A stretch of 64,000 nt of DNA from Amphiscolops sp. MND2022 (Eukaryota). The stretch is from the NCBI GenBank assembly GCA_964187785.1, contig OZ076409.1, positions 61,134,001 to 61,198,000 on the forward strand. Reading direction: 5' to 3'. The stretch's first letter is position 1, and every line of letters begins with the position of its first letter. The notes below the pieces were generated by a model. That model was not told the DNA's origin. It saw only the letters and a list, made by a program, of their open reading frames with translations, and did not search any database. Below, in pieces: positions 29,418 to 62,186 of the stretch. A program made the translations under genes and the position numbers.

Positions 29418-29713
29418 GAGATCAAGTTGCTTCGCATATTTTGGTGTTGAGAAGGTGATATGCATTCATACTCCAATAACTTGTCTATAATTGCAATAAT
29501 TTGTTCATTAATCAGAAAACTATCATTTCCTCCAACTTTTTCAAAATAAAGTAGTTTCAATTGATCCACTAATTCGTCTGGGTCAGATGGGAGGAAAATG
29601 TACTGTTGTGCGTAGCTTCGCGTGGAGCCCTGTGCACACCCCTGTAATCCACTTCCTGTGAAGCCCTGTGTAGCCTCGCGTGTATAACTCTGTGATTGAT
29701 CCTGTGCATGTGT
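29414..29713 (-). pseudogene. C-terminal part of the Polinton gene split by the 32.5-kb insertion
   Basis: LPSDPDELVDQLKLL..GGND..NEQIIAIIDKL Polinton-type C-terminus; TQG/QSYT repeats continue those of the 62187-62981 half. Confidence 0.8.
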
Positions 29714-31040: not shown

Positions 31041-31454
31041 CCCGCACAAATAATATGAATATAATTTTTGAGTTTTGCATCATATATATCAGCCGGACGC
31101 TGTTTATTAGCAGTATTCTCAGCACCGGGCGTTGCTCTTTTGTTTGGTTCATCTTTGGAAGTTTCCATTTGTCCATTAATTGATTTTTGTTTAAATTAAT
31201 TGAAATGTTTGATCCCAAATAAAATTCCGGAAGCTCTGGTAGTTAGCATATTTTCGTAGTAGACTTTGTAAATTAGATTTTTAGACCCTCCAGAGGCCAC
31301 GTTCTTCAGAGGCCAGAGGCGTGGGTCTTGTTATGGGCGACACTATGTGATCCCCTAACTGAGAGCCTCTCTAAAAATACATGATAATGGGTGTCAGTGT
31401 TTCAAGGTTGTGATTTTTTATCACAATTTTCACTTTAGCCCGACATTTTTTTAT

Positions 31455-31910
31455 TTAGTTTATTTATTAGTAGTGTTCTCAGCACCGGGCGTTGCTATTT
31501 CATTTAGTTTATTCGATAGCAGTGTTCTAAGCACCGGGCGTTGCTATTTCATTTAGATTATTTAATAGCAGTGTTCGAAGCACCGGGCGTTGCTATTTCA
31601 TTTAGTTTATTTAATAGCAGTGTTCTAAGCACCGGGCGTTGCTATTTCATTTAGTTTATTTAATAGCAGTGTTCTAAGCACCGGGCGTTGCTATTTCGTT
31701 TAGATTTTTTAATAGCAGTGTTCTAAGCACCGGGCGTTGCTATTTCATTTAGTTTATTTAAAAGCAGTGTTCTAAGCACCGGGCGTTGCTATTTCATTTA
31801 GTTTATTTAAAAGCAGTGTTCTAAGCACCGGGCATTGCTATTTCATTTAGTTTATTTAATAGCAGTGTTCTAAGCACCGGGCATTGCTATTTCATTTAGT
31901 TCATTTATTA
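31455..31910. repeat. 49-bp satellite, 9 copies, with CACCGGGCGTTGC core
   Basis: Core at 31482, 31531, 31580 ... 31874. Confidence 0.92.
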
Positions 31911-34186
31911 GCATTTAACAGAAAAGATCCGAAAGTTTTAGTGTTCTAAAGCAATCACAATGCAAAAGAGATTCACTGAAAGAAGTATGAGAATTACAGA
32001 TAAATTTTCGTGAGTTCGATTGTTTCCGGGGTATTTGGATTTATTTTTTATGTTATATGAAACTAATTTCATTTTTATGTTAAATGGGAATAATTTTGTT
32101 TTTATGTTATTTGCTCTTTATTTGCTCTTATTAAAAAGCATAAAACTTCAGGCAATAAAGAGCAAACTTTAAAATCAAATGAATGTTCTGTTGGTGCAGT
32201 GGTTTACACGACTGCTTGAAAAATTGTAGGTGTGTAGTGGTACCCAAGAGTGTCAAGTAAATTATTGAAAATAATTGCAATAAATATATTCAAATAATTT
32301 ATTTTTCAGCCTTTCCAATTACAATAGTTTATTGTTTCAAATTTTACATCAAACACGTCAAACTCAGCTGAACGAATTTTCAGTACTGCGAGATACTTCC
32401 ATAATGACTATCTATGTGACTTTGAACAAAAATTCGAGCATCCGGGATGTAAGTAAATACAGTGAATGAAGTTTTGTGAAAATAATTCGTTTTCTCAAGC
32501 ACTCCAGCACAATAAAGCGACAATAGTTTAAATCATTTATTTTCTTGAAAAATAAATATAAATAGTTTAATTTCATGCAAATTGTATTGAAATACAATAT
32601 TTTACAACCTAGGTGGTACCGATCTGTTTTGAGCCTTTTGCATCTTTCCGTCCTTATGCTGTCTTACTTGTTCATCCTTTTGTTTATCCTCTTCAAAAAG
32701 AGCGTACTGCGATTTCTCTGCAATCTGATTGGCTGAAAGCATGCGGACCGGAACGAAAGCACGGGAAACTTCAGAGAAAAATGAACTTTTTAATTCACAA
32801 CTCAATTTTGCGTGAGGACTTCGTTCCGGTCCATCCATTTTTCTGAAATTTGATTGGCTCAGACCGGTTTTGCTCCATTTTAACTTAACACTTAACACCT
32901 GACTTTTAACATTTAACGGGAAGAGACCTCATTGAAAATTGCATTTCAATAGGAGGATGGTTATTTTCATAACTTGGGAGGACGGAGGTTCAAAATGACC
33001 AACGATAATGAGTTTTACCTCTCAATGAGGGTATAGAATATGAAAGTGAAATTCGACTGCACTTCAAACAATTTTAAGCTCTTGTCAAACCTGACAACGA
33101 GCAGGTACGTGAAGCTGGCATACCAAGAATTATTTCAAAATGCTGTTGGCTCCCGCGTTGTCATATATTCGTTGGTTCGCAGTAAATATGGTATATGAAC
33201 TGCAACACTACTGAATGCTTCAAGGTCTTGTTGGAGTAGTCGGTTGCGCGAAAGATTGATCTCACACCAGCTGCATAGTTAAATTGTGGTTCGAATCACG
33301 GTAGGAGCCACCTTCATGGTTCATGGAATAGATTTCACTGTGATTGTTGATGTTTCAATCGCATCCACGGTGGAAATAATGCAGTAGTGTTGAGAGCAAT
33401 GCCCTTCTCCACTTCCTCGCGCAGTATGATTACTCCAACCAGGCTTTTTTGAGAGTATTTGTTCGTATACTGCGCTACAGTTTTAGCCAAATACATACAA
33501 TCAGGGGTGTTCAATATTTTATCCGAATATTACTATTGCTTTATAATTATTTTTATTCTCAGCGAAAAACGGATATCAACAAAAATTTAAAGTAGCCATC
33601 CATAATCAGGCCAAAACGCGGCGACAGGGCTTTTTTAATGGACTCTTAGACCTTTTGACTCAGTAGCTTAAGGTACTTGACAAAGGTATTTCTAGAAATT
33701 AGCTCAATTTTGTTTGTTTTTCGAATTTATTTCGCTGACGATTCGTTGAATTAAACGCTCTTAGTTTTAGTTATCTCAAAAATAAGTATTTTTATTCATT
33801 TAAGTGTTAATTAAGACATTTTTTTAAAATGTTGAAAATCTAAATATTCAAATCACTAATTACAATGTTTCTAATATCCATGTTTCAAAACTTTTTTAAA
33901 AGTCATCCTTGTTTTGAACAATTAATACTTGGACAGTTTGTATACAAGGATACCAGTTAGATACGAGCATTGGTAGCACATACACACACAACGAGAAAGT
34001 TTGGATCTTTTGTTGATCCCCCCATTTAATTCCCCCGTTTTTATTACTCGATATTACTCTACTTATTTTATAACTCTAGCTGCAACTGAAACTTATCGCT
34101 GTTACAGTAATAAAATATTTTTTATAAATGAAAATAAAATATAAATGAAACGACTTGAATTGAAAAAATACAATGTGTGCGTGCAA

Positions 34187-34567
34187 TTAGAATTCCATGC
34201 CAAAGAATGATTCGTCCGAAGACGAGTCAAAGAGTTTTTCCGAAGAAATCTTCTTGATGCTGGACATAAAGCTCAGCAGTTCTTCCAGTAGTGGATCCTT
34301 GTTGTCCAGAGCATGGTAGCCCAGCACTTCGTTCAAGTCCTTGAAACTTTGTGACTGTGGGTGAAGGTGTATGTTGAATTTCGTTGGGGTCTTTTTCACG
34401 GGTAGCGGATGAGAGCGGTTAGATTGGATTCCATAGAAACAAACTCTGATGACACTTTCTCTGAAGGTCCAATATATTTTTGTGATGGTAACTACCTCAA
34501 TATCGAGGTTTTCAAGCTCTTGTGGAACTACCCACAGTAAGTTCAAATATAGTTTGTGGCAAGGCAT
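34187..34567 (-). CDS. Orphan cargo protein A (126 aa)
   Basis: ATG-started ORF similar to the ORF at 38437-38925 (..P.S.SF..L.EVL.YHAL.N.DP.LE). Confidence 0.65.
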   Translation of the reverse strand: MPCHKLYLNLLWVVPQELENLDIEVVTITKIYWTFRESVIRVCFYGIQSNRSHPLPVKKTPTKFNIHLHPQSQSFKDLNEVLGYHALDNKDPLLEELLSFMSSIKKISSEKLFDSSSDESFFGMEF

Positions 34568-36034
34568 CAGTAGATTTGGTAGGTTAGACTAAACAGACTG
34601 CGTTCAAAGAGACTGAGAAACAACTGGAATTCTACAGTACCCTTCCAAAAGCGTGCTAGCACAATCGTCTCAACCTTAAACCTTACTCACGAGTAATGAG
34701 TCGGTGTTCAGTTGTGATATAGTTCAAAGTAAAATACTTTGGTGAAATAACCGGCTATAGATAATCAAGTAATTAGGAACAGCAAAGTCGAAACGATTGT
34801 TGGTTACTTAATTAAGTATTTTAAAGGCTGCCTAATTATTAAAATTGTAGTAACAAGCGTGACGTTTATTCGTGTTGCCTCGCTATAAAGTATTCAGCAA
34901 AAGAAAGTCCCTTACACTAAAGGAATCCTTTGATACTCCAGTAACCAATTGGATTCCACTTCTAATTAACTCACTTCAGACTCACCTACTAACCAGTCAG
35001 CGCCAATTCACAATCAAAATCAGTTGAAACAACCATCTTTCTCCACTGAACCAGTATTACTGAACCAGTTTCATTCTTCACTGAACTGTATTCAACAATG
35101 CTGAAAGCGACAGGGACAATAATCCTACAAAATGGAAACTTCGCCGTCATTGAGATCAAGTCACAAACCCCCAAGAAAGTTGGATTCTGCTATTACAATA
35201 GTGTGGTTTACCCTGACGGAAAGATAAGGTAATTATTGTTCTAAATCGTTTAGAGTTTCTATGTTAGAATCTGGTTTTTGTATTACGAAAGAATCTATAT
35301 CATGATGTTTTTGGTACACAGGATAACCCTCAGATCTTGGGGCATATGATTGACTAAAAAATTTTCAAAAATACTATCTCAACTTTGTGAAAATCAAGAA
35401 AAAATGCAAATTTGATTTTGTCAAAATTTACAATCCTAACTTTGTAATTTTTGTCAGAAGACTTTCAAATAAACTTTTTTGTAAACTAGATAAAATTCTA
35501 AGAACTTTTTGTAGCCGGCAAATTTTTGTTCATCCTGTTTAGACACGAAAAGATGCTCGAGAATGTGACGGATTTCATGGAAGAACAAGAGGATCTGTGG
35601 CGGCCCAATAATAATATTCATGTCAAGCCATTCCAAGCACGACTTTGATGACGAGATGATGCTGAGAAACAAATAGTCTCACTACCAAGACGATTGCCGA
35701 CGATGCCGCTGGTTGAATTTATCTGTAAAACAACCAAGAACCCGAACTCGAACGCGTATTTCTGGAATATGTGTTGAAACATTTGTGATCACTTTCAATA
35801 CCTTTTGTTTTCGTTAAATATCAATGAAAAATTTCATTGCTTCTTCGTTTATTTTCGAGTGTCGATTTTAGGAAATAGGAGTACCGAATTCGCATAAGAA
35901 AGTCCCGCCGTTTTGAGAAAATGAGTGCCCGAATTTATTCTTCCTGATTATCACTACAGTAGAGTATTTCACAAAAATACATTGAGGGTTATCATTATAT
36001 TAGTTTTGATTGACGTCTAAGTCAATTACTGTAA

Positions 36035-36465
36035 ATCAAACACTGCGCGAGTCAACGGGCGTTGCTATTTTTATTCGTTCATTCTAAATTATACACTGCG
36101 TGAGCACCGGGCGTTGCTATTTTTAATCGTTCATTCTAAATTATACACTGCGTGAGCACCGGGCGTTGCTATTTTTAATCGTTCATTCTAAATTATACAC
36201 TGCGCGAGCACCGGGCGTTGCTATTTTTAATCGTTCATTCTAAATTATACACTGCGCGAGCACCGGGCGTTGCTAGTTTTATTCGTTCATTCTAAATTAT
36301 ACACTGCGCGAGCACCGGGCGTTGCTATTTTTAATCGTTCATTCTAAATTATACACTGCGCGAGCACCGGGCGTTGCTAGTTTTATTCGTTCATTCCAAT
36401 TCGTTCATTCTAAATCAAACTCTGAGCGATGCACCAGGCGTTGCTATTTTAATACGTTCATTCTA
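36035..36465. repeat. 52-bp satellite, about 8 copies, with CACCGGGCGTTGC core
   Basis: Core at 36104, 36156, 36208, 36260, 36312, 36364 plus degenerate flanking copies. Confidence 0.92.
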
Positions 36466-36862
36466 AAACTAGAAGACGAAACTAGAATAAAGATTGGTAT
36501 TTTTATTTCTTTGAATTATTTTCAAATAAATTATTTATTGCACAACGCTGATTGCACTGGGCGTTGCAATCAAAGTTGTTTAAGTTTTAATTGTTTGAAT
36601 TCAGGCAATTAAAAAGTTTATTGATTTGAATGCATTTAGCTGCAATTAATTGCAACTATTTTTTAAGCAAATCAAATGTGAGAAACTGACAAATTTCAAG
36701 TATTTAGGTATAAAATAAAAAACTTGTCGCCCAATAACCTTGAAAAGCGACTTTTTCGTAAGTGAACCATTCTTTCTGGAATATTGATGACGTTAAGAAA
36801 ATTATAAACTCCTAGTATTTTCTTGCAGGATTTAATTGCAATTTTTGTTCGTATCGTTCATT

Positions 36863-37312
36863 GGACCATGTCATCTGTTTCCCCCCCCAACTGCGGCGGG
36901 GGGGGGGATAAGTCACAAGGTTCAAATACCACTATGTCGACATCGTTTGCGTTAGAATATTAATCCAATAAAACAATTGATGTCGACATAATCCTATCCA
37001 TTACATTGACTGTCAGTTAAAAGTTGCTCATTAGATATCATCACGGAGAAAATTTGCGTTGAAATAGGGGCCTTTTTATACTATTTCATCTTGTTCCAAG
37101 CGTGAATTTTTGCCATTTTGGACAATCATATCAAAAAATTAGGGTTTTTTTTTACCTGAAGTGTCCAACAGTTGTAGAGACAATCCGCTAAGTATTTACA
37201 TTCGTATAATATTCTCTAAGTAGTGAAATATTTTTATTCAAGAACAAAATGTGCTTTCGTGCTGGGGGGATTCCTAACAAGGTGTACCTGGGGGGGATAG
37301 ATGACATGGTCC
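36863..37312. mobile_element. 450-bp MITE, Merlin-like
   Basis: TIR GGACCATGTCATCT / AGATGACATGGTCC; exact 8-bp TSD CGTTCATT (36855-36862; 37313-37320); a lone end of the same family at 40752. Confidence 0.85.
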
Positions 37313-37324
37313 CGTTCATTTTTT

Positions 37325-37510
37325 AACAAGTTGTGCGATTAACACCTGGCGTTGCTAATTTACTTCCTTTTGAACAAGCTGTGCGATTAAAACCAGGCGT
37401 TGTTATTTTGCTTCGTTCTGAATAAGCTGTGCGATCAAACACCAGGCGTTGCCTTTTCACTTTGTTCTGGATAAGCTGTGCGATCAAACACCAGGCGTTG
37501 CTTTTTTACG
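37325..37510. repeat. About 49-bp repeat, 4 copies, with CACCAGGCGTTG core variant
   Basis: AAGCTGTGCGATCAAACACCAGGCGTTG units. Confidence 0.8.
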
Positions 37511-38436
37511 TCTTTCGTTTAACACCAGTGCTTTAAACAGAGCAAATAGGAATAAGACTAAAATAGAACCGTCCAATATCAAGGCGCTATGGCCGAGAGG
37601 TAAAATAGAATACTTTACTGCTGTAGAATGTCGGTTCGAATCTACTTAACACCGGGCGTTGCATTGCTTTTTTTTCAAATTGGATGCGTGAAACTTAGAG
37701 ATGTAATCTATCGAATGCTTGTAAAAATCCGAATCATGTCGTTTTCCCCCGATACACATTGTTTACAGTTTACATGACTAAAAAAGACAAAAAATCATAT
37801 CTTGCTTGCTAATGCCACCCCTTCCCCAGCCTACAAGATCCGAAACAACTACAAACTTTAATGTCCATCTAATTAAAATTAAAAAGTTTCTTTTGGCATA
37901 AACGGTCACAAAATGCTGAGACAGTTTTACCGGAAATATATTCCTTTCGTTACTAGTGTATGTGGATCAGACTTGTAATACAAAGACTTCGTACACCATC
38001 CGTGATTTTAGACCACCTCAAAAAATTTAAATAACCAATTCAACCTCAAACCGTCACAAGAGTGCAGAGGTATCGGCACTATCACATCAATTCAGTTTGA
38101 TGCTTTTCTTTAGTCGCCCAACCAGCAACAAATTCAACTACCGATTACCTAATTACCAAATAATTCAGGCTGAACAATTGAACAGACTAGCCTTATGTAT
38201 CATTGAGTAACGCGGTGTTGTGCTTTCATCGACTACATTCGATTAACATGAAGCAACTTAATTCTCTAATTGATAATATTCTACTATTGAACAAAGCTGT
38301 TATTTATGTCTTTCATTCTCGAAGGGAGGAAAACGCAATTATTTGTTATTTGCCAGGGTTTCCTATCGAATAATACATCCTTCATCAGGCTTTTGTTTTT
38401 CGGTACATTTTCTCTTTTCACTTATATATCTCGTAA

Positions 38437-38925
38437 TTGGTTTCTCCACTGGCTCATTCTTTCGTTCAGAGCTGTTTCAAATCAGTCAGTTCAGTTTCGT
38501 TTTCGACTCTCTCTCTCTCTTTCTCCCTGTGTGTGTGTGCCTATCTCAACCACGCTCTTTTTCTCTGTCAAGTATTCACTCTTTCCATCCAAATGTTTTG
38601 GTACCAAAAAGTGTATTTGCACCTCGAATGGACTCTGCCCAAAGAGATGCAGATCAACGGATTAGTTGACGTAATCATTACAAGATTCCGTTGGACCTAC
38701 GCAGACCATTCGGTGAAAATTTGCTACCGTTCCAAGTACTCGGGTCTAGTGTCACCCTCCCAGCCAAAATCCCGAAAATGCAAAGTGCGAATTGATCCAG
38801 AGTCACACAGTTTTTCAAGACTCTATGAAGTTCTTTGCTACCATGCCTTGGAAAACACTGACCCTGCGCTGGAAGACGCCGTGACCTACATGCAGCTGAT
38901 TTACCCACTATCAAGAGCAGCTTAA
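38437..38925 (+). CDS. Orphan cargo protein B (paralogue of A; true start uncertain, probably near 38592)
   Basis: IITRFRWTY..VKICY..IDPESHSFSRLYEVLCYHALENTDPALED aligns by eye with protein A. Confidence 0.6.
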   Translation: MVSPLAHSFVQSCFKSVSSVSFSTLSLSFSLCVCAYLNHALFLCQVFTLSIQMFWYQKVYLHLEWTLPKEMQINGLVDVIITRFRWTYADHSVKICYRSKYSGLVSPSQPKSRKCKVRIDPESHSFSRLYEVLCYHALENTDPALEDAVTYMQLIYPLSRAA

Positions 38926-41900
38926 AAACTTTCAATTTTCAAAAACAGTCTTATTTCTGAATTTGTTTTCTCGCTTCAACTATTTGGTTTCTCATTCTGT
39001 TGGTTGAATTGAATTTATAGAACACATACTTGGTTTTGGCACGAGATAAGTTGAGTGTTAATATAGACTACAAGGGTTATTGTGAATAGGTTACTAGAAC
39101 CGTAAGAAACTCAAGCAAGTTATCAACCAGTCAACTACTGCTGTTTGTAGCTACAAACATAGAAATTGACTGGCAGTAATAAACTAGAATTCTCAGTTAT
39201 ATAACGAAATTTATTCTCTTATTTATCTTGACCACCTGAATTTTCAGGAATTTTCGTTTGCTATATAGCATCTGTCTTTTCTAGTTATCTACAACGATTT
39301 TTAAAATTACAAAGCAAGTCAGTTGATCGAGCGAAATGTAAACTCAGTTTTCGTGAATCCGCACTTGGTAGGACATGAGGCCGTTTTTCAATAGCACAAG
39401 ACTTGCACTTAATACATGCGGTCGTAATTTTACTCGCACAAGGTCGGACCCGCACTTGGTAGGACATGAGACCTGTTTTTACTAGCACAAGGTCGAACTA
39501 ACAAAATGGCAAATGAAAAACCAAATTAGTTTTTGAAAAATAAAAATGAAAAGAGCTTCATCAAACATGAAATTAAAATTGTTTGGGAAAGTTGTCAAAA
39601 GCATTCAAAATCCAAAAGACTAACTGAAAATGTGTTAAAATTACTGACAAAAACGTGAGTTTAATTGTTTAACCGGGTATTCGGCTTTTCGTAATATATG
39701 AAAATAATTTCGCTATGTTGAATGGAACTAATTCCGTTTTTGTAATTTGCTCTTATATAGTATTCGCTACGTGAGTTTGGCGTTATTTGATTAACTTAAA
39801 ATTGCTGCTCTTTCAACCGAGTTAGTGTAGTAGTTAATCACGCTGTCAAGCTCATCATTTGTTAGCGGCAGCTCGTTACAGTATACGCAATTATATGTGT
39901 CTGAAGGTGAACCGGTAATTGCATTTGCGTGTTGTACGATGCTTGACACTATCTAATTCGGTTTTTTAAAGCCCCGAGAAAATCCTTACAGAGAATGTTT
40001 TCGGCATTCTTATTCCCAATGTTATTTGGAAATTCACCAATGTTTTCATTTTGGTTGTTTGACTCGGCTTAAAATAGCAACGCTCGGTGGTTCAGAATTA
40101 TAAGGTGGTTGGGAATTATAAAATGAAATCAAATACTCCCCAACTGGAACAACGTTTGAAACAATCAACTAGTTCCTTTGAATTAAATTCATCAAATTAG
40201 TTTATTGCTTGGAATACTGTAAGTCGGACTTAAACTTTCAAAAACCAAAACGTTATGCGCATTTGGAAAATCAGGCACATTCACAAATTTATTAATTATT
40301 TAATAATTATAATCAAACCCCCCCCCAACTGGAACAACAATGAAAATTTAAAACCTCGATTTTACCGAACGTTGAACTTTATTAGTTAATTCAGTTCGTT
40401 TTTTTGAAGTACAGTTAATATCAAATTATTGTTCGGTATACGTGAGAAGAATATAGAATTCGGTCTCTATATCTTGTTTTTGTATTGAAAAGGATTGCAG
40501 TTCTGGAGAATATTTTAAATGAAAAATAAATTGTTTTGAACAAGTAAAAGGAAAATGAACTATTGATCAAATTGATTTTTTAAAATACATGTACCAATCA
40601 AATACCCGCCCCCCCACCCCCTCAATAAAAATATCTTTGATTTACATTATTCATAAAATTTAATTTAGGATTCATTTATTCAGTTTACTTTTTGACAACT
40701 GTTCTTATAGAAACCAAAAGGCATAAAATCCAACCAGTTATTTCTTAAATCGGACCATGTCATCTATTTCCAAGGTACACCTTGTTGGGAAATTCTCCCT
40801 CCCCCCCAAACACTAAAGCTGTTTGATCTCTGTTCCTTGGATATAATCGAAAAAAAAAGAAAAAAATCACGAGCAGCGCAGTTCGGTAACTACTTTCTGA
40901 TTACATTCTTTATTCAACTCGATGTTCGGGTTTTGAAACCAAGTTTTGTTTGAAATGAAAGGAGGCTGAGTTTGTATTCCGAGCTGCCGCTCTTTTATTG
41001 GGAGTCAACTTTCTTGGTTTTGTCGACGAAAAAAGGAGTGCGGTGGAAATTCTACTAGTTGAACGATGCAGCGTCGTGCAAGCAATGTTTGTTTATGATT
41101 CTAACAAAGCGAGCTGCGGAGTTCAAAGCGGTGACTCATGTGACTCATCGCTTCTTCCAGCGCAGTCGCCATTCAATAGCCACTCTCTTTATCATTCAGT
41201 TGCGTTCGCTCTCTCAATCAAAATTTGAATACCTATCGTCTACTCGCCTATTCAAATCACAATATTTCCACCGATATCAGTGATGATCATTTTTCTTTTG
41301 GTTTCAATGTTTCAGTTTTCTCATTTGTTTCGAAAAGTGAAGTAAAGTTTTGAATTTTCTTTTCGACGATATAATGGTTGCACTCAAGGACGTACAAAAT
41401 TGTATTTAAAACTTTGTTTTCAAATTCAGAATTGAAAACTAAAAAAATGATCATCACTCATTCTTGGAACAAGATATGCCTTTACGCTGCACTCACTGCG
41501 CGAAGGAATTCCAAGCCAATCAGAAGTGGTTGTTCAGTCGCCATCAATCAAGATGCCTGGGTTAGTAAACAAAGATTTTGTACCAAATAACATAAGAGCA
41601 AATAACATAAAAGCGAATTTCTTTCCATTAAACGTAAAAATGAAATTAGTTTCAAAAAAAATCCAAATACCCGGTTAAACAATCGAACTCACTAAATTCT
41701 CATACTTTTTCAGTGAATGTCTTTTGCATTGTGAATGCTTTTGAACACTAAAACTTTCGGATCTTTTCTGTTAATTCCCCCACAGAGAAAATTATGAAAC
41801 ACCACCCCCCCCCCGTAACAGAGATGAGTTTCAGTTGCTGTTAGAGTTAAAAAAAGGTAGAGTAATATAGAGTAATAAAAACTGGGGGGAATTAAAACGG

Positions 41901-42594
41901 TAGGGGGGATTAACAAAAGATCCAAATTTTCTCGTAAACAATTTTATTTTCATGTTATTTGAAACTAATTCAATTTTTATGTTATTTGCTCTTGTGTTAT
42001 CTGGGAATTCACCGTAAACAAAAATTATTGAACAAACCATCCCCCTCACCGCCACCACCAAAAACAGTCAAAAACAGCTTGTGAAAAAAAATTGTACCTG
42101 GATTTAAATAAAATTGAAGGTTCTTGGTTTGCGTCCAAGCCTCTGTTGAAAATTGGAATGCTTGATCATTCATTTGCAGGGCTGTCCAAAAATTATTTCA
42201 TCAATCATCAATTTATCGATAAAAAATCAATCAAAATTTATCGATCGTAAAAATCAATCATCAATTTATTGATAAACTCATGAGATTGTGTTTTCCAAAT
42301 CAGTTCTCAGGTTTTCACACGATTCTGTTTTTAAGGCCAAAGAACACGAAAAGCTCAAATCATTTTCCGCTGCACTTGCCAACTATGTGGGTTAATTTGC
42401 GCAAGCACGACCAAATTGCAGCAGCATGTTGCTAAAAAGACTTGTCAGAAGCGACAAAAAGAAGCTGTGGAACAAGGAGTTACACCCAGTGAGTTTCCTT
42501 CACCGCCTCCAAGTAAGTTGTTTGCTTTTTCAATCTTTATTTTGTTAAATATTTTTTATTTTAATCTTGTTTTACTAGGCTCAGGTATTTTTCA

Positions 42595-43260
42595 AATCTC
42601 AAGGCGCAGTCAGTCTCAATTCCCAGCACCGGGCGTTGCTTTTTCCCGAAACTCAAGGTGTAGTCAGTCTCAATATCCAGAACCGGGCGTTTCTTTTTTC
42701 TTCGAATCTTAAGGCGCAGTAACAGTCTAGTTTGTTAGCACCGGGCGTTGTTTTTTTGTTCGAATTTTAAGGCACAGTCATAGTCTCAATTTCCAGTACC
42801 GGGCGTTGCTTTCTTCTTCGAATCTTAAGGCGCAATCATAGTCTCAATTTCCAATACCGGGCGTTGCTTTTTTCTTCGAATCTTAAGGCGCAGTAACAGT
42901 CTAGTTTGTTAGCACCGGGCGTTGCTTTTTTGTTCGAATTTTAAGGCACAGTCATAGTCTCAATTTCCTGTACCGGGCGTTGCTTTTTTCTTCGAATCTT
43001 AAGGCGCAGTAACAGTCTAGTTTGTTAGCACCGGGCGTTGCTTTTTTGTTCGAATTTCAAGGCACAGTCATAGTCTCAATTTCCAGTACCGGGTGTTGCT
43101 TTTTTTCTTCGAATCTTAAGGCGCAGTAACAGTCTAGTTTGTTAGCACCGGGCGTTGCTTTTTTGTTCAAATTTTAAGGCACAGTCATAGTCTCAATTTC
43201 CAGGACCGAGCGTTGTTCTTTTTTTCTAATCTTAAGTTGCAGTAACAGTCTAGTTTTCAA
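42595..43260. repeat. About 58-bp satellite, 11 copies of two mostly alternating subunits, ACCGGGCGTTG core
   Basis: TCTTAAGGCGCAGTAACAGTCTAG and TTTTAAGGCACAGTCATAGTCTC units alternate. Confidence 0.9.
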
Positions 43261-43415
43261 GACTTATGTTGTTTGCTATTTGGGAATTAACCTTTTTTAA
43301 AAGGTCTTCAATTACAGAAGCTTTCGTAGAACCTATGTATCGTTCTTGAAATAAGAGTAATCTCATTTCTTGTCTTCAGTTTCCAATTGTAGTTTATTTT
43401 CCTTTCCGTGACGCA

Positions 43416-43637
43416 CAGGGGCGGTGTTTGAAATTTCTCAACGGGGGGCATGTTAGTGCTGCTTAAAACGTTTGCAAGGCAATCAATGAAATTTCAACCC
43501 ACTATTCCTAACAGCAAGTTTGAAAATTTTGATCCCAAACATGGCTAAAAACCTAAAACAGAAGGGGGTTTCTTCCTTTGCTGTTTTTCAGGGTTAAATT
43601 CTGAACGAGGGCACCCCCTCGTGTAAAGTCATCACTG
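43416..43637. mobile_element. Possible hAT-type MITE (222 bp)
   Basis: CAG...CTG ends, near-identical 8-bp flanks GTGACGCA / GTGACGCT; TIR imperfect. Confidence 0.5.
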
Positions 43638-51100: not shown

Positions 51101-52729
51101 GAGTTCATATTTCATTGGCTTTATTGATGTTATATTTTGGTTGAACTGCTCTGTGTGACAAAACCCTACCTTTCTTGCTCTTCAGAAAACCATGTCTACT
51201 TGTAGTGCTGCGCGAAAAACTGAATCGTGGAAAGACTTCCTCTATTCTGATCCGGAGGGTTTCATTGTCCAGACCGTCAAATTCGCCAATGGAACGACTG
51301 GAAGAGGGCTTTTCGTGAAAAAGCAATTTGAAGCGCAAGAGTTTCTCCTGAGTTTTGGGGGGCCGAGGAGAGCAACTCAAGTCGCCAACTTTGACTACGT
51401 GATGGAAGTTCAGGAGGGAAAAGACACAGTGTTCATTGACACTTCCGATGAGACGAACTCTGGCTTGGCGAGGTTTATCAACGACAAGGACAAATCAGTT
51501 GCCGCCAACTGTCGAATGAAAAAGGTTCATGACGACGAGGGCAGACCACATTGCATCTTCCTGGCAACTCGTGTTATTCTTCCAGGTCAGTTTAATTTTT
51601 CAAATTGTGGAACAATCTTCTGTAATGTTTCCCAGAATTCTCAAGTAATTGAAACCCAGATTTAGTTGCTACCAAAAAAACAGTCAAAATGACAGTCAGA
51701 AATGTTTTGAGAAATCAGTGACAGTGTTCGAATGTAAAAGACTTAAACTTAGCACCTTAAACGTTCATATTGGAAACTAATTTCATTTTGACAGTTTGAG
51801 ATTCAAATACAAATTTTGTTCAAACTATGTCCTTCAAACGCAAATTTTCTTCGCCTTAAAATTTAAAAGAATAACTTTCAACTGACAGGTAGCGGCCCCT
51901 TGAGGAGGATTGAACACATGGTCCCTTACTTCCATACTTTTGACACATGACCACGCTCTAGTAACTTTTCAATTCCCACAAAGTATGTCCCACTAATTGA
52001 TTCCGAATAGTTTATCGATTGAAAAAAGTGCTAAAAATTAAGATAGAGTATAGTTATCCGCCTGTCAGGTGTTGGGTGGTGAATGAACCAAGTTGAGAAC
52101 TTGCCATACAAGCTGTTGATTTGAGTTTGATCAGGAGGGGGACAACCACTTATTTACTTGGCGAATAGAAACAAACAAGATTGCGGTTAAAGTCCCATCA
52201 ATGCTTAGTAAATTAGTTTCAGGTCCCACCGAGTGCATTTTCGAAAACGTCCTATTTATTTTTTAAACAAAAATAAGCGAAGCGTCAATAAACCCTGCCA
52301 TCCCCATGGGGTGTTGGGTGGTGAATGAACCAAGTTGAGAGCTTTGCATACAAGCTGGCAATTAGGAGAGAGCAATCAGTAAATTACTTGGTGATTGAAA
52401 ACAAACACGACTGCGTTAAAAAGTCCCATCGATGCTTAGTAAAGTACAGGGTAAGGCCACACCAAGTGCAATTTGAAAAACGTTCTATTTATATTTCAAA
52501 CATATTGTTCTTGCATATAAAATCGCGTTTTCTGTTCGTTTTTGGTACTGTCGCGGAGCCCAAGTTAACTTCTAATTAGGCCCTTTTGAACGTTTTTTGG
52601 TTTTTTCTTTGGAAAATAGGATTATCATGGGTCAACATTGAGCATTAGAGCGGATGTTTTGCAGCAAAGAGCCATATATAACGTTGAAAAATACCTTTCG
52701 TGTAACTACAGGGAATGAAAAATAATGTT

Positions 52730-53155
52730 TAAGTTCGACCAAGTGGTAATGAAGCTCAAACACCGGGCGTTGCTATTTTAAAACACAAACTAGTAGTGTT
52801 TATGTTCGACCAAGTCCCCATAAAATTCAAACACCGGGCGTTGCTATTTTAACCAGGTAGTGATAAGTAGTAGTGTTTATGTTCGACTAAGTCGTTATAG
52901 AATTCAAACAACGGGCGTTGCTATTTTAACCAGGTAGTAAAAAGTAGTAGTGTTTATGTTCGACTAAGTCGTTATAGAATTCAAACACCGGGCGTTGCTA
53001 TTTTAACCAGGTAGTAAAAAGTAGTAGTGTTTATGTTCGACTAAGTCGTTATAGAATTCAAGCACCGGGCGTTGCTATTTTAACCCGATAGTGAAAAATA
53101 GTGTTCATGTTCGACCAAGTCGTGAAAAAATTCACGAACACCGGGCGTTGCTTGG
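52730..53155. repeat. About 77-bp satellite, 6 copies, combining GTTCGACCAAGT and CACCGGGCGTTGC
   Basis: Cores near 52760, 52831, 52908, 52985, 53062, 53139. Confidence 0.9.
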
Positions 53156-55754
53156 AATAGAGTCCACGAGCTGTATAAGTTTTTTCTGTCCTTTCCACTG
53201 GCACATGAAAAATCATTTATATTATTATAAATGGACATCACTGCTTTCCAGATGCCAGATTGTTTCATTATACGGAATGTATATAAACATCTCAGTTGGG
53301 ATAACTCACTAACACAGGGCGTTGATATTCCAATCACTTTTGGCAAAAGTTCCAGGGATGAGTAAGTACATAATTTGATAGGCTCAAATCAAGTTCCCTA
53401 TTTGAGAGGTGTTCAAGTTTCTCGATTCCAGGTGACGTCTTTAAACCAGGATGGGGCTTAGCATAAATCCCAAATCTTATCCATAATTTCTAAATTGCAT
53501 GACATTGAGCAAAATTGTTTTCAAACGGTGAATTCCCAAATAGCATAAGAGCAAATAAAAACACGAGAAAGTTTTAGTGTTCAACATTATAGAAAATTCA
53601 AAGGATTCACTGAAAAAAGTATTAAAAATTACAGATAAAATTACGTGAGTTCAAATGTTCAACCAAGTATTCAGTTTGATTTTTATTTTATAAGAAATTA
53701 ATTTCAATTTAATGTTATTTGAAACTAATTTTGTTTTTGTTATTTGCTCTTGTTATTTGGTACGTAATCTTTTTAAACAATCCCTCGAAATGGACTTTTT
53801 CTGGTAACCGCCAGAATTTTGGCCGTTTCCCTAAACGTTGAAATTTAGTAAGCTTTTCATTGCGCCAAAAACGTTTATTAAACGCTTCTGATTGGTTGAA
53901 AATTGAATTAGGGAAAAAACAAAGTGATTGAGTTTGTGTGCTAAACACCAATGAACTATTTATGATAATGTAATCAGCTATGTTCTTATGCACCTAGTAT
54001 GCACTTAAGTGCAGCAAGGCAGCGAAGCGGAGAGACAATACATTACTTGGCAAGCAGCCCGTTTTGACAAAAACCGACATGAAGTGGCGCGAAGGGCTGC
54101 CGCGGAATGACGGTCGACTCCAGCAAAAAATTGAAAATATTTGCTAAATTCAAATTTTTGGCGCAATGCAGAAAAATTGAATTAGTGTAACGCAATCGTT
54201 ATTGGCATTGGACCATCGTATCCATCTATTTGCATATACTGTAACGAGCTGTCCCCAAAAGATGAGCTCGACAATCGCGCGATAGCGGGATTGTCCACAA
54301 TACTAACAACACTAACATAAGATAGAACCTTTGAAGTTAAAACAACCAATTACTTTACCAAAAATATACCTTTGTGCGAACGCGTTTCAAAATACCGCAG
54401 CTTTTTTGCCTAAAATTACAAAGTTCAACAACAAATAAGTTAAGAGAGTGCCAGAAATACGAAACATCAAGGGAAGTTTTAGAACTTTTGGTATCTCTGA
54501 AAATGTTTCATTGGAATTTCTGCAACAAGAGTTCCAAAATTAGAACAATGGTAACTTCGAAAAAAGTTTATCAAGTTAGCATTTTTTCCAACCATCACAT
54601 TGTTGAAAAAATATCCGTGAAAATTGTTTCGTTAACCATTTGCCCCCAAGTCTGAGGATGCCAGTACCATTAGATTGAACAAAAAATTGGTTTCGAAAAA
54701 TTGACATTTTTTTAATTACAAGATATACATTGGTGGGTCTCAGCGACAACAGTAGCAACGCGTGGTGCTTGAACATCATGATCAATCAAGTGCAAGTCCG
54801 ACCATGTGCTTGTAAAATCAGTCATGTCCTACCAAGTGCGAGTCGACCTTGTGACTGTAAAAACACGACGACAAATTTTACTAACTGCCAGTCCGAACAT
54901 CTGCTAGTAAGAAACAGCATCATACTGAGTCCGTTTTACATGAATCGAAATACATTGTCCAAAAATAGAATAAGTTTTGATATAATTCAGAAATATTTTT
55001 GACTCATTTGAAAATTTTCATAGTTTCAATTTTGAAAGAAAAATTTTGATAGATTTCGAAGCGCCAAAAAATGAAACTGGAGAAAACAACAATATAATAT
55101 TGTCACCAGCGGGTAGCAAAAAACTTTTTACGTGGGCACAGGAAAATTGATATCTAGTTTTAGAAAATGGAATAAGGGGAAGCTTAAAAGGAACACAAGT
55201 GTTTTTCTTCGCAGATAAAGAAATGAGTTTTACTTGAAAAATTCACGTGCAACCTTGTTTAAGGAGAAGAGCTGCGATATGATTATGGCTTCCCAAATGC
55301 CGAGTAGCGAAAAAACACCGCGGTTCCCGAAAGTGAGACACCAGTTAATTTGGAAAACCCAAATTCTACAATAGAACTCGTGGTTGCAACGGCACAAATG
55401 CTTACACTTACCGAAAATGAAATGAGGTTAACTGCAGCCGGACAAGCGCCATGCGAAGAATACGTTACAAACAAATCAGCTGTTACAAAGGAAGAGTTGT
55501 CGAAGCCGAAGACCAGAAGTAGAGTTGTTTTAAAACACCAGGTCCAGAAAATAGAAACGTCAAAACCAGAATCGAAAGCCAACATTACACAGAATATTGA
55601 TTCCGAATCAAAAACCGAAGATGAGAAGTCGGAACAGACAGCCGGTGTAGTAAAAGGTTTCTCGAAATGCGTGGTGGCACTCAGAGCAACTGCCTCAGGA
55701 AAGGATGATTCAAAACAACCAACTACAATTGGAGTAGCCGAGGCAGCTGTCGTA

Positions 55755-57035
55755 AAAAAACTTGAAGCCATGCCAGCTGTCGCAAAGAAAGTTGCTCCTA
55801 TGTCACCAACTAAAAGTGGAGAAGCCAAGCCAGCTGTCGGAGAGAAAGTTGCTCCTAAGTCACCAACTAAAAGTGCAGAAGCCAAGCCAGCTGTCGGAAA
55901 GAAAGTTGCTCCGAAGTCACCAGCTAAAAGGGGAGAAGCCAAGCAAGCTGCCGGAGAGAAACTTACTTCAAAACCACCTGCTAAAAGTGGAGAAGCCAAG
56001 CCAGCTGTCGGAGAGAAACTTGCTTCAAAACCACCAGCTAAAAGTGGAGAAGACATAACAGCTGTCGGAGAGATAGTTGTTTCGGAACCATCAGCTAAAA
56101 GTGGAGAAGCCAAGCCAGCTGCCGGGGAGAAACTTACTTCAAAACCACCTGCTAAAAGTGGAGAAGCCAAGCCAGCTGTCGGAGAGAAACTTACTTCAAA
56201 ACCACCTGCTAAAAGTGGAGAAGCCAAGCCAGCTGTCGGAGAGAAACTTGCTTCAAAACCACCAGCTAAAAGTGGAGAAGACATAACAGCTGTCGGAGAG
56301 ATAGTTGTTTCGGAACCATCAGCTAAACCTGGAGAAGCCAAGCCAGCTGCCGTAGAGAAACTTACTTCAAATCCTCAAGCTAAAAGTGGAGAAGCCAAGC
56401 CAGCTGTCGGAGAGAAAGGTGCTCAGAAACCACCTGCTAAAACTGGAGGAACCAAGCCAGCTGTCGGAGAGAAACTTGCTCAGAAACCACCAGCTAAAAG
56501 TGGAGAAACCAGGCCAGCTGTCGGCGAGATAGTTGTTCCGAAACTACCAGCTAAAACTGGAGAAGCCAAGCCAGCTGCCGGAGAGAAAGTTGCTCAGAAA
56601 CCACCCGCTAAAAGTGGAGAAGCCAGGCCAGCTGTCGGCGAGATAGTTGTTCCGGAACCACCAGCCAAACCTGGAGAAGCCAAGCCAGTTGTCGGAGAGA
56701 AACTTGCTCAGAAACCACCAGCTAAAAGTGGAGAAGCCAAGCCAGCTGTCGGAGAGAAAGTTGCTCAGAAACCAACAGCTAAAAGTGGAGAAGCCAAGCC
56801 AGCTGTTGGCAAGATAGTTGTTCCGGAACCACCAGCCAAACCTGGAGAAGCCAAGCCAGCTGCCGGAGAGAAAGTTGCTCAGAAACCACCAGCTAAAACT
56901 GGAGAAGCCAAGCCAGTTGTCGGAGAGAAACTTGCTCAGAAAGGAGCAGCTAAAAGTGGAGAAGCCAAGCCAGCTGTCGGCGAGATAGTTGTTCCGAAAC
57001 CACCAGCTAAAAGTGGAGAAGCCAAGCCAGATGTT
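55755..57035 (+). repeat. 57-bp coding minisatellite (19-aa KSGEAKPAVGEKLAQKPPA), about 22 copies
   Basis: Exact 57-nt period within exon 2 of the SET-YR gene. Confidence 0.92.
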
Positions 57036-59575
57036 GCTGATGAACATGCTTCGGAACTGGCATCTGTCATTGACGCGAATGAGCCGTCCGTCGCAGCGTT
57101 GTCTTCTAAAAGTGGACCAGTGAGATCATCAACCATTTGCGGAGCATCAAGACCAGCTGAACCGCTTCAACAACCAACAGCAAGTGGAGATAAAAAAGGC
57201 TGTCAAAAAGCCGACCCTGACATCAACGAAACAGCCGCAAGCCAAGAAGCCGAAGAACATAGACTCAGCTATCGAGGAATCTGTTCAAAGGTTGACGACA
57301 AACAAATACCAGAAAAAGGAAGAAAGTTCTTCAACTCCGGATACTTCTCTACCTCACAAAGTAAACCTAGTTTTCTTTTGGTTCACTTTCCTTGATAAAA
57401 ACCACAAAAGTTTTTCAGTAGTCGTTTTTCGTCTCGCATAAAAGTTCATCACATTTGGTCGAACATACGTCGCATGTTCGACCTAGCTCTCCAAAATTCA
57501 GAATGCCGGAGCCCCTTGGTTTCTTTCGTGAGACGTCTACTGGTCAAAAAACAATTGTAGAAAAAAGATGTTTTGGAATAAAGCGAAAATTAATTGAAGG
57601 CGGAGTTTCTAAGGTTTTGCTAATGAAAATTGCTGTTTTTCTGTTGAAGTTTTACCGAAAACATTTCAATTGGTTGATAGTGATCTTCAACTTAGTGTGT
57701 TGTTTTGCAGTTGACACCCAGGAAGGGAACAACCAGAGCTGTAAAACTGCTCGCCAAGGGCCGTCAATACCTACAGCCGAAACCGGAAGCTGAAGAAAGC
57801 GAAGAATCCGTCTCCGAACAATGCTCAAGCGACGAAGAATCGCAGCCCCCATGTTCCAGTGGAACAACTGAAGATTCTAGTAAAGATTCGTCCACCTCGT
57901 CGAGCGATCGATTCACTCCCGGAAGTGATGATGACACGGACGATGAGGATGTGAGCAGCGAATACCCATCGGAAGATGAGCCATTGGAACGAACAAGATC
58001 AAAAACGAAGAAATGCGGTCCTCTGGTTGGAATAACCAAAGAAGTTGTTTTGGATGCAGAAGGTATCAGTCAGATTAGTGAAAGTTCTTACAAGTCAGCT
58101 ACAACTTCAACGGATACCCAAGAAATGGACGATCAGGAAATGGAACTTGTAATGGAGAAGTACGTCCAAAAAACAGGACAATGCCAATTCAATGCTAAAT
58201 TTCTTCGGAAGATCAAAATTCAAGTCGCCCTGAATAAACACAGAAAAACAAAATGTTGTCCTTACTGTCCCTTCACTGAACCAGAAAATGCCACTATGGT
58301 GCAAAAACTGACACGTCATGTGGATAAATTTCATCGCAAAGAACTCCGAGTTTTAAACCTTCAAAGGATTAACAAGGAAATTGAGGATCTTGAAGAAGGC
58401 AGGGAAACTGTTCAAACTGAGACCGAACTTAAAAAACTGAGGAGAGAGAAGGACAATCTCACTCACTTGATTGTCTATGAAGGTCTCTATAAATACAACA
58501 TCGCTGTTTTCAAGAAGTGCAGCGAGACCCAAAACTTCGAGAGCAAATTGATTGTTGCCAGGGATCCAACTGTAGCTGAAAATCCATCTGCTTATGACTT
58601 TGCCCCTTGTCCAAGTTGTCTCGGTTTCTTCCAGAAAAAAACAATGTATCGACATAAAACAGATTGTCCAGCAAGTGGAAAGATAGCTTTGAGCAATACA
58701 GGAAAAAATATCAAGGCTGCTACATTTGCATTGATGCTCGAAGTGAAAGCTACCAAAGACACCCCATTTGAACAATATGTTTTCACACGAATGAGACATG
58801 ATGAATATGGGAATTTTGCAAGGCGTGATCCTCTGATACGATACCTTGGCCAGTGGTACTTCGATAAGAGAAAAGCTGACGAGGGTTACCTTCAAATCAA
58901 CGACAGAATGAGAACAATGGCCAAGCTTGTACACAAACTCAATTGCTCATACTTGATTGAAGTCATTAATCCCGAAATGTGGCCAAGAGTGAAAGAAGCT
59001 GTTATGACATTCGAAAAGTCCTACAGGATTAAAATGGGATCAATTCTGAAAACAGCTGCTCAGTTCTTACGCAACCAGGCTTGGATGTGGAAAAAGAAGT
59101 CAATATCGGAAACAGCAAGAGAGTTCTTGAAAATTCTAGATAGTGAGTGGGCAGCAATTTCGGCACCAGCAAAATATGAGTTAGTTTTTTCTTTTTTAAC
59201 ACTTCATGTCACCACGAAAAACGTCTCATACTGACTTTCAAATTCAACAAAAACAAAGAAAAATGATTTTGCACTTCAGAAAAATGCAGATGTACGTCGT
59301 TTGACAACTTTTTAATTTTTGTAGTATCTTTCATTTAATTCCGTTCTCGCTACTATGCCTGAGCGGATGTCGCGCCCTTAAGCGTCAAATTGACAATGTT
59401 GAGTCTTCCATTGCGGCAACAGTGCAGGAGGGAAGCTGTCGTGAATTATGACAATCCCACGTGGGTGCATATCCGGATAGCATCAACTTTTTTTCAATGT
59501 TTTCAGCTTTAATTCCGTATTTCCAAAATGAGTTTTTTTTCATATTGGCCTTGTATGTTTTGATTGTTTTAACAG

Positions 59576-60350
59576 GATGCTGAAGAAACAGAACGAGTCG
59601 ACACACCTTGTCATTCCAACTTCGGATATGATGCGCTTCGGAGAAAAGATTGGGGCAAAAATTTCGGGTTTGCTGGCCAAAACGACTCACAACTACGCCG
59701 AAATGAAACAAATCGTGATTGCTGATCTTGTCAGTTTTAATAAGAAGCGAGATCGCGAAGTTTCGGGTGTAACACGAAAAGACATGATTCTCCAAAGGAA
59801 TCTGGCTTTACAGAGGGCACAAACAACGGATTACGAACTTTTTAAGCTCACAGAAGTTGAAATGATGTTCGCAAAGTACTACACGTTGCTGCGACTGCCT
59901 GGGAAAGGTGGAAAATTTGTTCCCGTTTTGATTCCACCGAAAACACTAGAAGTGATAGACATCATGAATAATGACGATAAGCTGAAAAGTGACAACTACT
60001 TCTTCCAAACAGAGGGAGGCGAACAATTCTACAGAAGCATAGATGTTTTGAGGAAATACGCTGAAGAGTTTAAGCTGCAAGACAAAAAAGTGTTCCGATC
60101 TACAAAGCTCCGCAAGTATCTTGCCACTGCAGCCCAGTTCTTGGATTTACCACAAAACCAAAGAGTTTGGGTGGCCGACTTCCTGGGACACGACCTGAAT
60201 GTTCACGACAAGTACTACAGGATGCACACTGATGCTGTAAACCTGGCAAAAATGACCAAACTATTATACATTGCGGACAAAGGCAAGGTCAAAGACGCCT
60301 ATCTAGAGAACCTTGACACACACCAGCCGACTTTGAATCTTGACGATTCG
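59576..60350 (+). CDS. Tyrosine recombinase catalytic-domain exon
   Basis: R (FNKKRDREV), K (PGKGG), TKLR in place of HxLR, H (FLGHD), Y (HDKYYR); no lesion in this exon. Confidence 0.88.
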
Positions 60351-62186
60351 GTGAGAATTTCTACTAATTTGACTTCAAATACTATTGCGAATAGGTTGAT
60401 AAGTTTGAATTCCAATTTTAATTTTTTTTCAATAATTTTAAAAGCTTCAGTTGAAATAGCAACGCCCGGTGTTTGAGAATACTTTTCACTTCGAATAGAA
60501 TTAACAATTAAAAAAGTGTCGGAGTTCAGTTTTTTGAATTCTTTGTTGAATTAGCAACGCCCGGTGTTTGAGAATACTGATTTCTCTTCGAATTGAATTA
60601 ACAATTGAACAAGTGTCGGAATTTAGTTTCTTGAGTTCTTTGTTGAAATAGTAGCATACGGTGTTTGAGAAGTTTGCTCTTCGAAAAGCTGCAAAGCAAA
60701 ATCACGTCTTCGTGTCATAATTTCCCCAAATTTTGAACTTTCCAGGATGCAGGTGAAGAAGTAGAAACTCCTGCTGATTCAAATCTTCCGAGTTCCTTGA
60801 AGGCGACTCCAAGCCGCAGCACATCACAACGAACCAAAGAGAAAGGGAAGAAGGATGAGTCTGATGAAGATGACGATGACGATGACGACAACAACGACAA
60901 GGAAGAAAAGTCAGACGATGACGCTTCATTCCAAGCAGATGAAGTTTCCCATGGTTCTGAGGAAGAACCCGAACAAAGAAGGCCCAAGAAAAAGAAGAGA
61001 ACAACTGCTGGAAGGCCAAAAGGTGCCACCAGACGACAATGGCCGAAAGATCAAGAAAAGGCGTTGAGAAAGGAATTTCGAAAAGAAATGATGGAAGGGC
61101 GTCTGCCCGGTCAAGATGTCTGTTTGGAAGCAATGAAGAGGTATCCTCATGCACAAAAGTGGCAAGATTTCAAGGACAAAGTGAGGAATATGCAGGTCAG
61201 CGATGCCAGAAAATGAAAACTGTTGGAAATTTCAAAGACTTTCAGTTCAAAACTTTTTTATTTTTAGGAAATGGTATTTATATCGACAATTTTTATATTT
61301 TGTGAACGCTGAATTGACTTAACTGTTTTGAATTTTGAATTTTCTGACAGCTTGTTCAATAAATTTGAAATGTTTATCGGACTTTGTTGATAAAGTTATT
61401 GCTTCTGCTTATTCAGTTTTGTGTTTTCTGAATTCACTTTTGCGTCCAAATATTTCCTTATTTTGTTTAAGTTAGAAATAGTTTTATTTTGTTCCTAATG
61501 TGTTATCAGAGGTGTGGCAGCGATAGCGGTAGCGAAAATCCTGCATAAACTAGCGATATCGATAGTTAGCGACAATATAAAGCGTTAGCGGACACTTTTA
61601 TTCGCTTAAAGAATTGAAAATTAACGAATGCAATATTTTATTGCGAATAACTTGACTCACTCATCCTCACTTGACTCACTCATCTTATTGGCTTTGGCTT
61701 GGCTTTTAGTTTCTTTCGAACGGTTATTCAGTGTAAAGAACGCAAGACGAACTAGATTTTGCCCAAAAATTTTCAAATTTTGTTACTTTTAGAGTACAAT
61801 TCTGAAATTTTTATATCTATGTTGAAAATCAAGATTTTTTAATCAGCAATGGGGGAAGGTTTTAATAAAAGAATGCGTGCAAATTGCCTAACTTTCACAG
61901 CAACAGGTAGAACAAAAAACTATAATTCGTCATAGACTGATTAGAAAAGGAGCAAAAAAGCATGAAACCAGCTATTGCACAACACATTCAAGTTTGTGTT
62001 AATGTCCTACCAAGGCATGTGGCTTTTTCTATCTTTTGTAGTCTCAGACAGTCTAAGATAGAATGTGCATGTTCGACCGCTTTTATGTGAAGGTTCGACT
62101 GTTTTGTTTGACCGGTCAATTGTGAGTGTAAATGTTCGACCTTATGCGGATTGTGCTGGCAGACCGACCAAGTGCGGATTCTCACA

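Follow-up and report, generated by a model that had tools for sequence, protein, structure and literature searches.

A 13-bp motif shared by otherwise unrelated tandem arrays in a CryptonV-like tyrosine-recombinase element of Amphiscolops sp.

How is a short word to be explained which recurs in one satellite after another of a single mobile element, while the remaining sequence of these satellites differs? The question is raised by a stretch of 64,000 bp from Amphiscolops sp. MND2022 (GenBank assembly GCA_964187785.1, contig OZ076409.1, positions 61,134,001 to 61,198,000), called the window in the following. It contains a large CryptonV-like transposon encoding a tyrosine recombinase (YR) and 31.5 kb of DNA outside this element. 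The motif under study is the 13-mer CACCGGGCGTTGC. An original prediction, made from the letters of the window, had described it as the common core of several arrays and had proposed that a protein of the element binds it and recruits histone-modifying activities in cis. The feature was confirmed at a frequency far above chance, and the CryptonV-like element resembles VANDAL in its architecture in cis; for the mechanism we offer an inference from these data.

Occurrence and conservation of the motif

The motif had been reported about 50 times, almost always on the plus strand and never outside the element. The present counts agree with this: 29 exact matches were found in the window and 56 with up to two mismatches, compared with 0.31 expected from shuffled sequences. 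All of the latter are located between positions 31123 and 60566, 51 on the plus and 5 on the minus strand; the inverted copies expected near 40077, 44333, 60460 and 60555 were recovered (at 40077, 44334, 60459 and 60554), and another one at 54755, which had been overlooked, was added. At up to two mismatches no copy is present in the 31.5 kb of flank, a statement which applies to this window, where the flank looks mostly like other mobile DNA. With up to three mismatches, 63 matches were obtained, 59 in the element and 4 outside. When independent clusters are counted, 10 of 13 are on the plus strand, a bias without significance (p = 0.09); a strand-specific role was dropped for this reason, and the result fits a double-stranded site.

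About 13 independent settings of the motif were counted. Alignment of 13 independent representatives gave ARCAC-nnn-GCGTTGC-TATTTT, with hardly any change in ARCAC and GCGTTGC and with three variable bases in the centre; the full form of the motif is ARCAC-nnn-GCGTTGC-T. The wider pattern matched 52 times at up to one mismatch, every time in the element. Judged from the alignment, two fixed blocks around a variable centre are the conservation pattern of a protein site. None of 59 copies falls into an exon (8,200 listed bases, exon borders being inferred from GT-AG words and homology); the 56 near copies are distributed between inferred introns (32) and the 5' region (24).

Arrays with periods of 49, 52, 49, 58 and 77 bp had been predicted and were confirmed by Tandem Repeats Finder (TRF); an additional array with a period of 95–97 bp on the minus strand holds the two inverted copies near 60460 and 60555. 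Six of the seven non-coding arrays of the element with a period of at least 40 bp contain the word once per unit; it is absent from a 188-bp array at 30518 and from a coding 57-bp array. The array remainders do differ, as had been claimed: after removal of the motif, the spacers of the six arrays showed no better alignment than dinucleotide shuffles (z ≤ 3.2, the top pair being the two 49-bp arrays). Several further copies had been regarded as single. The copy at 37650 is an independent single and that at 53313 a single variant, and the flank of the copy at 31123 resembles the 49-bp unit, but the copies at 45141–45201, 46579–46823 and 48465–48516, and probably at 50096–50156, turned out to be decayed units of the 58-bp family. 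In comparisons with the 58-bp spacers, z values of 3.0–7.8 were obtained for five of seven such units, 1.0–4.2 for the unit at 50096 and 0.8–2.3 for that at 46698. A profile constructed from the 58-bp spacers alone gave nine matches outside the array; the five with E < 0.01 all adjoin a motif with up to one mismatch, and the four with E of 0.9–3 are without motif, one of them having a remnant with four mismatches.

Within the arrays, a gapped alignment contained substitutions at 18/481 positions (3.7%) in the motif versus 103/1384 (7.4%) in the spacers. It superseded an ungapped test (18/481 versus 178/1110, p = 9e-14), which was inflated by indels. Motif identity was higher than that of the flanks in three of four duplicated segments, which had been chosen around the motif (p = 0.028, 0.005 and 0.051). 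These values are suggestive of purifying selection on the motif, but not conclusive; the recurrence in unrelated arrays is the strongest argument.

Some other identities of the word were considered and rejected. Folds for an RNA hairpin or terminator are weak (-0.7 to -3.5 kcal/mol), and the A at position -1 in 5 of 13 representatives is without compensating change. Many copies are preceded by AA and not by AG, as a splice acceptor would be. Compared with the usual signature of a Helitron 3' end, the copies are internal and mostly without a following CTAG. A search of Rfam yielded nothing credible (a single match, E 0.94). Pairs of motifs were found neither in JGI metagenomes nor in IMG/VR, where 28 single matches of the 16-mer were treated as chance.

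The element, its proteins and its relatives

The coordinates of the features are given in Table 1. The exact cut of the element is ambiguous by 2–4 bases owing to the TG repeat at the insertion site, a short TG-rich stretch and not a long microsatellite. Both ends open with CATGTG and then GAGAATCCGCACTTGGTCGG, inverted relative to each other. The word GTTCGACC is present 17 times in the element and not outside; it clusters at the two ends, within the end-like modules of the interior and in the 77-bp unit. The subterminal GTTCGACC / CCGACCAAGTGCGG repeats are likely recombinase sites, and the terminal word appears to be a likelier one than the 13-mer, since the latter stays 1.4–1.6 kb away from the ends, which carry their own repeat. 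Similar ends were found in relatives. Four copies of one relative (L047, L049, L051 and L054) end at one base before (TG)n, and comparable ends were seen in L039, L055, L065 and L097; the last bases ahead of (TG)n in these related YR elements are GTA. A GTCCTC-type repeat is packed into the last 400 bp in five of seven relatives (12–25 per kb versus 2–4 elsewhere). GTA before (TG)n, in some cases with regularly spaced subterminal GTCCTC, is a clear target and end signature of the YR family.

Table 1. Features of the element and positions in the window.
Feature	Position	Strand	Remarks
Whole element, 32,484 bp, CryptonV-like tyrosine-recombinase transposon	29707..62190	+	TGTG on both sides
Left end: imperfect inverted terminal repeat and subterminal GTTCGACC / CCGACCAAGTGCGG repeats	29707..29900	+	
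First motif copy	31123..31135	+	1,416 bp from left end; flank like 49-bp unit
Array A, period 49 bp, 9 motif copies	31449..31913	+	TRF
Second small paralogous ORF (open reading frame), about 110 aa	34190..34561	-	
Array B, period 52 bp, 7 copies and 2 trailing (36432, 36555)	36032..36567	+	TRF 36032-36396
Array C, period 49 bp, 4 units and independent single at 37650	37328..37662	+	TRF 37328-37516
Small ORF, 110 aa	38593..38925	+	35% identical to paralogue at 34190-34561
Internal end-like module (left-end-type repeats)	39353..40440	+	inverted motif variant at 40077
Small exons, C2HC/C2H2-type zinc fingers (41488, 42377)	41474..42512	+	
Array D, period 58 bp, 116-bp higher-order repeat, 11 units	42591..43258	+	TRF to 43251; inferred intron after zinc-finger exon
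Duplicate of end-like module	43728-44703		motif variant at 44334
Decayed 58-bp-family units (45141, 45201, 46579-46823, 48465, 48516)	45097..48528	+	includes unrelated single at 47183
Zinc finger fused to KDM2/KDM7-type JmjC, two large exons	48676..50849	+	
Probable decayed 58-bp-family units	50003..50168	+	inferred JmjC intron
Inferred spliced gene: SET, repeat, Cys/His motifs, tyrosine recombinase, Myb-like tail	51192..61216	+	
Array I, period 77 bp, 6 units	52726..53152	+	inferred SET intron
Single variants at 53313 (+) and 54755 (-)	53313..54767	+/-	inferred SET intron
Array J, period 95-97 bp, 2 motif copies	60450..60671	-	inferred intron between recombinase and Myb-like exons
Right end: inverted terminal repeat and same GTTCGACC / CCGACCAAGTGCGG-type subterminal repeats, then TG-rich target	61941..62190	-	

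Finger, Myb-like, JmjC and SET domains had been predicted for the element, and candidates for all four were found. The JmjC domain has its best PDB match in KDM2A (E 1e-10). The pieces of the long gene are collinear with single fish proteins, from a KMT5A-type SET domain through an N-terminal part of the recombinase and its catalytic domain to the C-terminal Myb-like tail. The SET domain is split by an inferred intron of 3.7 kb (51586–55263) and resumes with GEELRYDYG at 55269. Between SET and recombinase a coding 57-bp repeat was observed (55764–57034; 19 residues, 22 copies, rich in Pro, Lys and Ala). The assignment as tyrosine recombinase was based on the residues R59, K111, R180, H206 and Y215, which are invariant or nearly so in an alignment of 49 members, on a match to Phage_integrase in 3 of these (best E 2e-4; the protein of the window alone matched no family) and on the only PDB match of the profile, a weak one to XerH (E 0.12). 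For the C-terminal domain, unnamed animal clusters and a Myb_Rap1 lead (0.75, Atlas) were obtained; "Myb-like" is a lead only. Sub-threshold BTB leads and no family were found in the Atlas for the small 110-aa paralogue. A probable two-exon small gene of about 80 aa is present on the plus strand at 35099–35610, just 5' of the 52-bp array.

The recombinase family comprised 2,176 representatives at E < 0.001; none was found in IMG/VR. SET was present in 15 of 33 long relatives which were scanned, SET and recombinase forming one protein collinear with this copy. One relative, P0062, possesses a CXXC finger after the catalytic domain, which is another chromatin-reading module. Copies on other long contigs are 92–98% identical in the aligned part. 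For the JmjC exon, 35 clusters with 148 member sequences were obtained, where fragments of one copy may count twice; identities are 46–99%, and HxD is kept in most. Thus, the element exists in many copies, its subfamilies have diverged, and the JmjC gene is, from these clusters, a stable part of the family. The finger helices differ among JmjC subfamilies. The finger exon preceding array D yielded five clusters, and representatives of four read through into the motif; two representatives from one contig contain an 18-residue (54-bp) unit three times at the position of array D, versus 58 bp here. The motif in other copies is known through such translated read-through ORFs of cluster representatives. 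The search of sequencing runs gave one run with a small share (0.09), and no run from RNA was listed. Contigs of run X1 cover 26 of 30 bins, mostly with less than 95% identity, and a related copy in this run is without 43668–44895 and without 957 bp of the coding 57-bp repeat.

Possible roles of the motif

The reading which we prefer, with somewhat less than even confidence, is that the motif is the binding site of an element-encoded reader, which would recruit the predicted histone enzymes of the element as a self-tag in the manner of VANC. KDM2/7 enzymes demethylate H3K36me2, H3K9me2 or H3K27me2, and H4K20me1 is the mark set by KMT5A. Through the motif, the predicted JmjC demethylase and SET methyltransferase would be held on the element's own chromatin, where they could counter silencing by the host; the outcome would be an open histone state and expression of the element's genes. 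Local tandem duplications would be recurrent, and those containing the word would be kept, because more sites mean more binding. The binder could be the zinc finger-JmjC protein or the SET-recombinase-Myb protein. The latter would be reasonable, since transposases can themselves activate their own copies, according to the available part of a preprint from 2026 (10.64898/2026.08.24.746577). The 110-aa paralogues are candidates for the reader as well. The position of the motif in a bounded YR element, its non-coding location, its presence in six arrays and a layout resembling that of VANDAL (PMC5735166, as far as the available text describes it) are in favour of this logic, which the original prediction had also proposed.

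Several observations weigh against it. The observed/expected ratio of CpG, a proxy for DNA methylation, amounts to 0.95 for the element and to about 1.0 for the left flank; for a surrounding Polinton it is 0.66–0.75, lower than the neighbours. By this proxy there is no DNA-methylation footprint in the element which would have to be opposed, and any anti-silencing would act on histones and not on DNA methylation; a DNA-demethylation model is without support, and the cargo is in keeping with a histone model. The fingers encoded by the element are few, located in separate exons and without canonical linkers, so that a site of 15 bp is hard to explain by them. Both enzyme genes are damaged in this copy: the frame of the JmjC gene is shifted after the finger and interrupted by two stops in exon 2, and the SET-recombinase gene has an in-frame stop at about 55305, after SET. 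Counted strictly by variable columns, the conservation excess is not significant (11/65 in the motif versus 60/219 in spacers, p = 0.10), and the fourth duplicated segment gave no excess for the motif (15/16 versus 795/906, p = 0.40). The outside control is small, its 31.5 kb being mostly mobile DNA. Among distant relatives (the best 80 of 352 loci, 460,805 bases), no motif was present at up to one mismatch and 4 were present at up to two; none of the 14 of these loci with at least two arrays shares a word longer than 8 bases between them. This negative is weak, since the contigs mostly cover the recombinase end only, and in a control the dispersed-word statistic also missed the motif in the recombinase-proximal 9–12 kb of the present element. 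Nevertheless, the shared motif cannot be called a family-wide feature. The 3' half of the motif, finally, resembles a host site, as follows.

A host transcription or chromatin factor, perhaps of the RFX family, could bind the word, which would then have been multiplied as intronic enhancers or barriers, with JmjC and SET acting independently. In 7 of 10 bases the reverse complement AATAGCAACG agrees with the RFX5/7 site CCTAGCAACA, a non-palindromic one, as given in the available part of (PMC11344851), CGTTGCTA is found 29 times in the element and not outside, and the element's own fingers are the poor candidates described above. Compared with the X-box (palindromic GTTGCCA-TGGCAAC or the variant CCTAGCAACA), the motif holds one half-site only. 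However, the fixed ARCAC is not part of the RFX site, the 58-bp family has GTTGCTT in place of GTTGCTA, and copies are absent from the 31.5 kb of flank at up to two mismatches. We consider this explanation unlikely. Quite improbable is a self-amplifying hotspot, where the word would be a site of breaks, stalling or conversion around which tandem duplications form without benefit. Minisatellites are known with shared cores as hotspots. A hotspot would directly explain the word in almost every array, and the modest conservation excess and the 77-bp array, which ends exactly at the motif, are in line with it; for five of six arrays, however, the boundaries are in the spacer, which is not expected from simple motif-to-motif exchange, conservation is higher in the motif columns than beside them in three of the four diverged duplicated segments, which were chosen around the motif (p 0.005–0.05), and a binder would still be required.

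Slightly less probable again are internal accessory sites of the arm or enhancer type, by which the recombinase would pair the ends of a 32-kb element at excision, without a role in chromatin. In every 77-bp unit the motif is accompanied by the terminal word GTTCGAC(C/T)AAGT, GTTC is present in five of six spacers (1.3% under shuffling), and the motif reads as an imperfect dyad, with 12 of 16 positions self-complementary. Yet the motif keeps a distance of at least 1,416 bp from the left end and 1,624 bp from the right end, the ends of this element and of five of seven relatives carry their own repeats, and the word is unlike YR core sites, which consist of arms of 11–13 bp flanking a spacer of 6–8 bp (PMC3212892, in the part available). 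A dispersed repeat or motif of the whole host genome, which landed many times in the element, appears very unlikely. The element does contain several internal dispersed repeats of unknown origin, but there are no copies in 31.5 kb outside versus 56 in 32.5 kb inside, and the motif is found at the corresponding place in other copies of the element. Moreover, the flanks differ between arrays, and no common carrier repeat is seen.

As an observation in its own right, two neighbouring X-box-like words GTTGCTATGGCGAC were noticed outside the element, at 9454 and 9525, in a promoter-like stretch.

VANDALs are plant Mutator-type DDE elements. In these, a short motif is bound by the VANC protein of the element and has accumulated via tandem repeats in introns and upstream regions, as reported in the available part of (PMC5735166). 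Likewise, the arrays described here are in introns and upstream, array units change between copies, as shown by the 54-bp unit in the read-through ORFs, and an element protein contains a tandem peptide repeat. The same source states that VANC removes DNA methylation, that it contains DUF1985/DUF287 domains and that the motif of 8–9 bp is bound by proven contact; here we have an animal-type YR element with a motif of 13–16 bp, element-encoded histone-enzyme domains and no CpG depletion. No Pfam match to DUF1985/DUF287 was obtained among 21 ORFs scanned, with small exons scanned in part. It seems rather doubtful to us that the element is an animal, histone-based counterpart of VANC, having its own reader and a demethylase and methyltransferase fused to a recombinase and marking its DNA with a word which is specific to the subfamily and multiplied in satellites, and that word and finger helix change together between subfamilies.

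With respect to mobilisation, CryptonV elements are YR-encoding DNA transposons, some families of which are inserted in microsatellites (PMC8869645, available part). The present element behaves like these, with a tyrosine recombinase as mobilising enzyme, a TG-rich target here and (TG)n in relatives; it is 32.5 kb long, has inverted ends and carries JmjC as cargo together with the motif arrays. Classical Cryptons (CryptonA/F/S) have in common with it a YR gene with introns and direct terminal repeats of 4–6 bp, TGTG here, but are described in the accessible part of (PMC3212892) as lacking terminal inverted repeats and carrying GCR1_C or DUF3504, whereas imperfect inverted ends are present here. 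Neither domain was matched in scans of the element's proteins. Fungal Starships and telomere-targeting nimaviral YRs are also large YR-mobilised elements with cargo, and the latter are targeted to simple repeats and also possess a C2H2 finger (PMC10871703, as far as available); in the same scans there was no match to the DUF3435 captain, and no nimaviral genes were seen. The CENP-B box is another protein-binding word common to otherwise different satellites, but it is centromeric and bound by a domesticated host protein, according to the part available of (PMC8122249), and the arrays described here are short and inside one mobile element. No YR transposon with JmjC and SET, or with internal motif arrays, was found in the literature, as far as covered without Repbase reports and subscription journals.

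In plants, VANC provides proof that a transposon can counter silencing in a sequence-specific manner. If a protein of the element reads the word, a transposon which edits its own histones would be at hand as a compact system open to testing; co-evolution of reader and site could then be examined directly, given the many copies and the differing finger helices of the subfamilies. Even with a host binder, satellites would have arisen repeatedly around one binding word.

Internal repeats and surroundings

The word family GTTCGACC, CCTACCAAGTGCGG was observed at 29707–29900, 39353–39520, 43735–43830, 45320–45376, 47379–47454, 54795–54893, 57457–57476 and 61941–62190; possibly, the element is a composite whose ends were nested or captured. 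An AT-rich repeat of 200 bp is found in the element only, in five copies and both orientations (31915–32124, 39595–39756, 41571–41774, 43887–44092 and 53563–53772).

The element splits a gene of the surrounding Polinton, and the two gene pieces were translated separately. Matches to integrase, double-jelly-roll capsid and A32 ATPase were obtained for this Polinton, which extends over 18464–29706 and 62191–64000, starts with AGTAGTA at about 18464 and contains several frameshifts. Further upstream, ORF pieces with a BED finger are present on the minus strand (4124–8166), probably belonging to a DNA transposon, and a near-perfect palindrome of 317 bp without a loop is located at 16460–16776.

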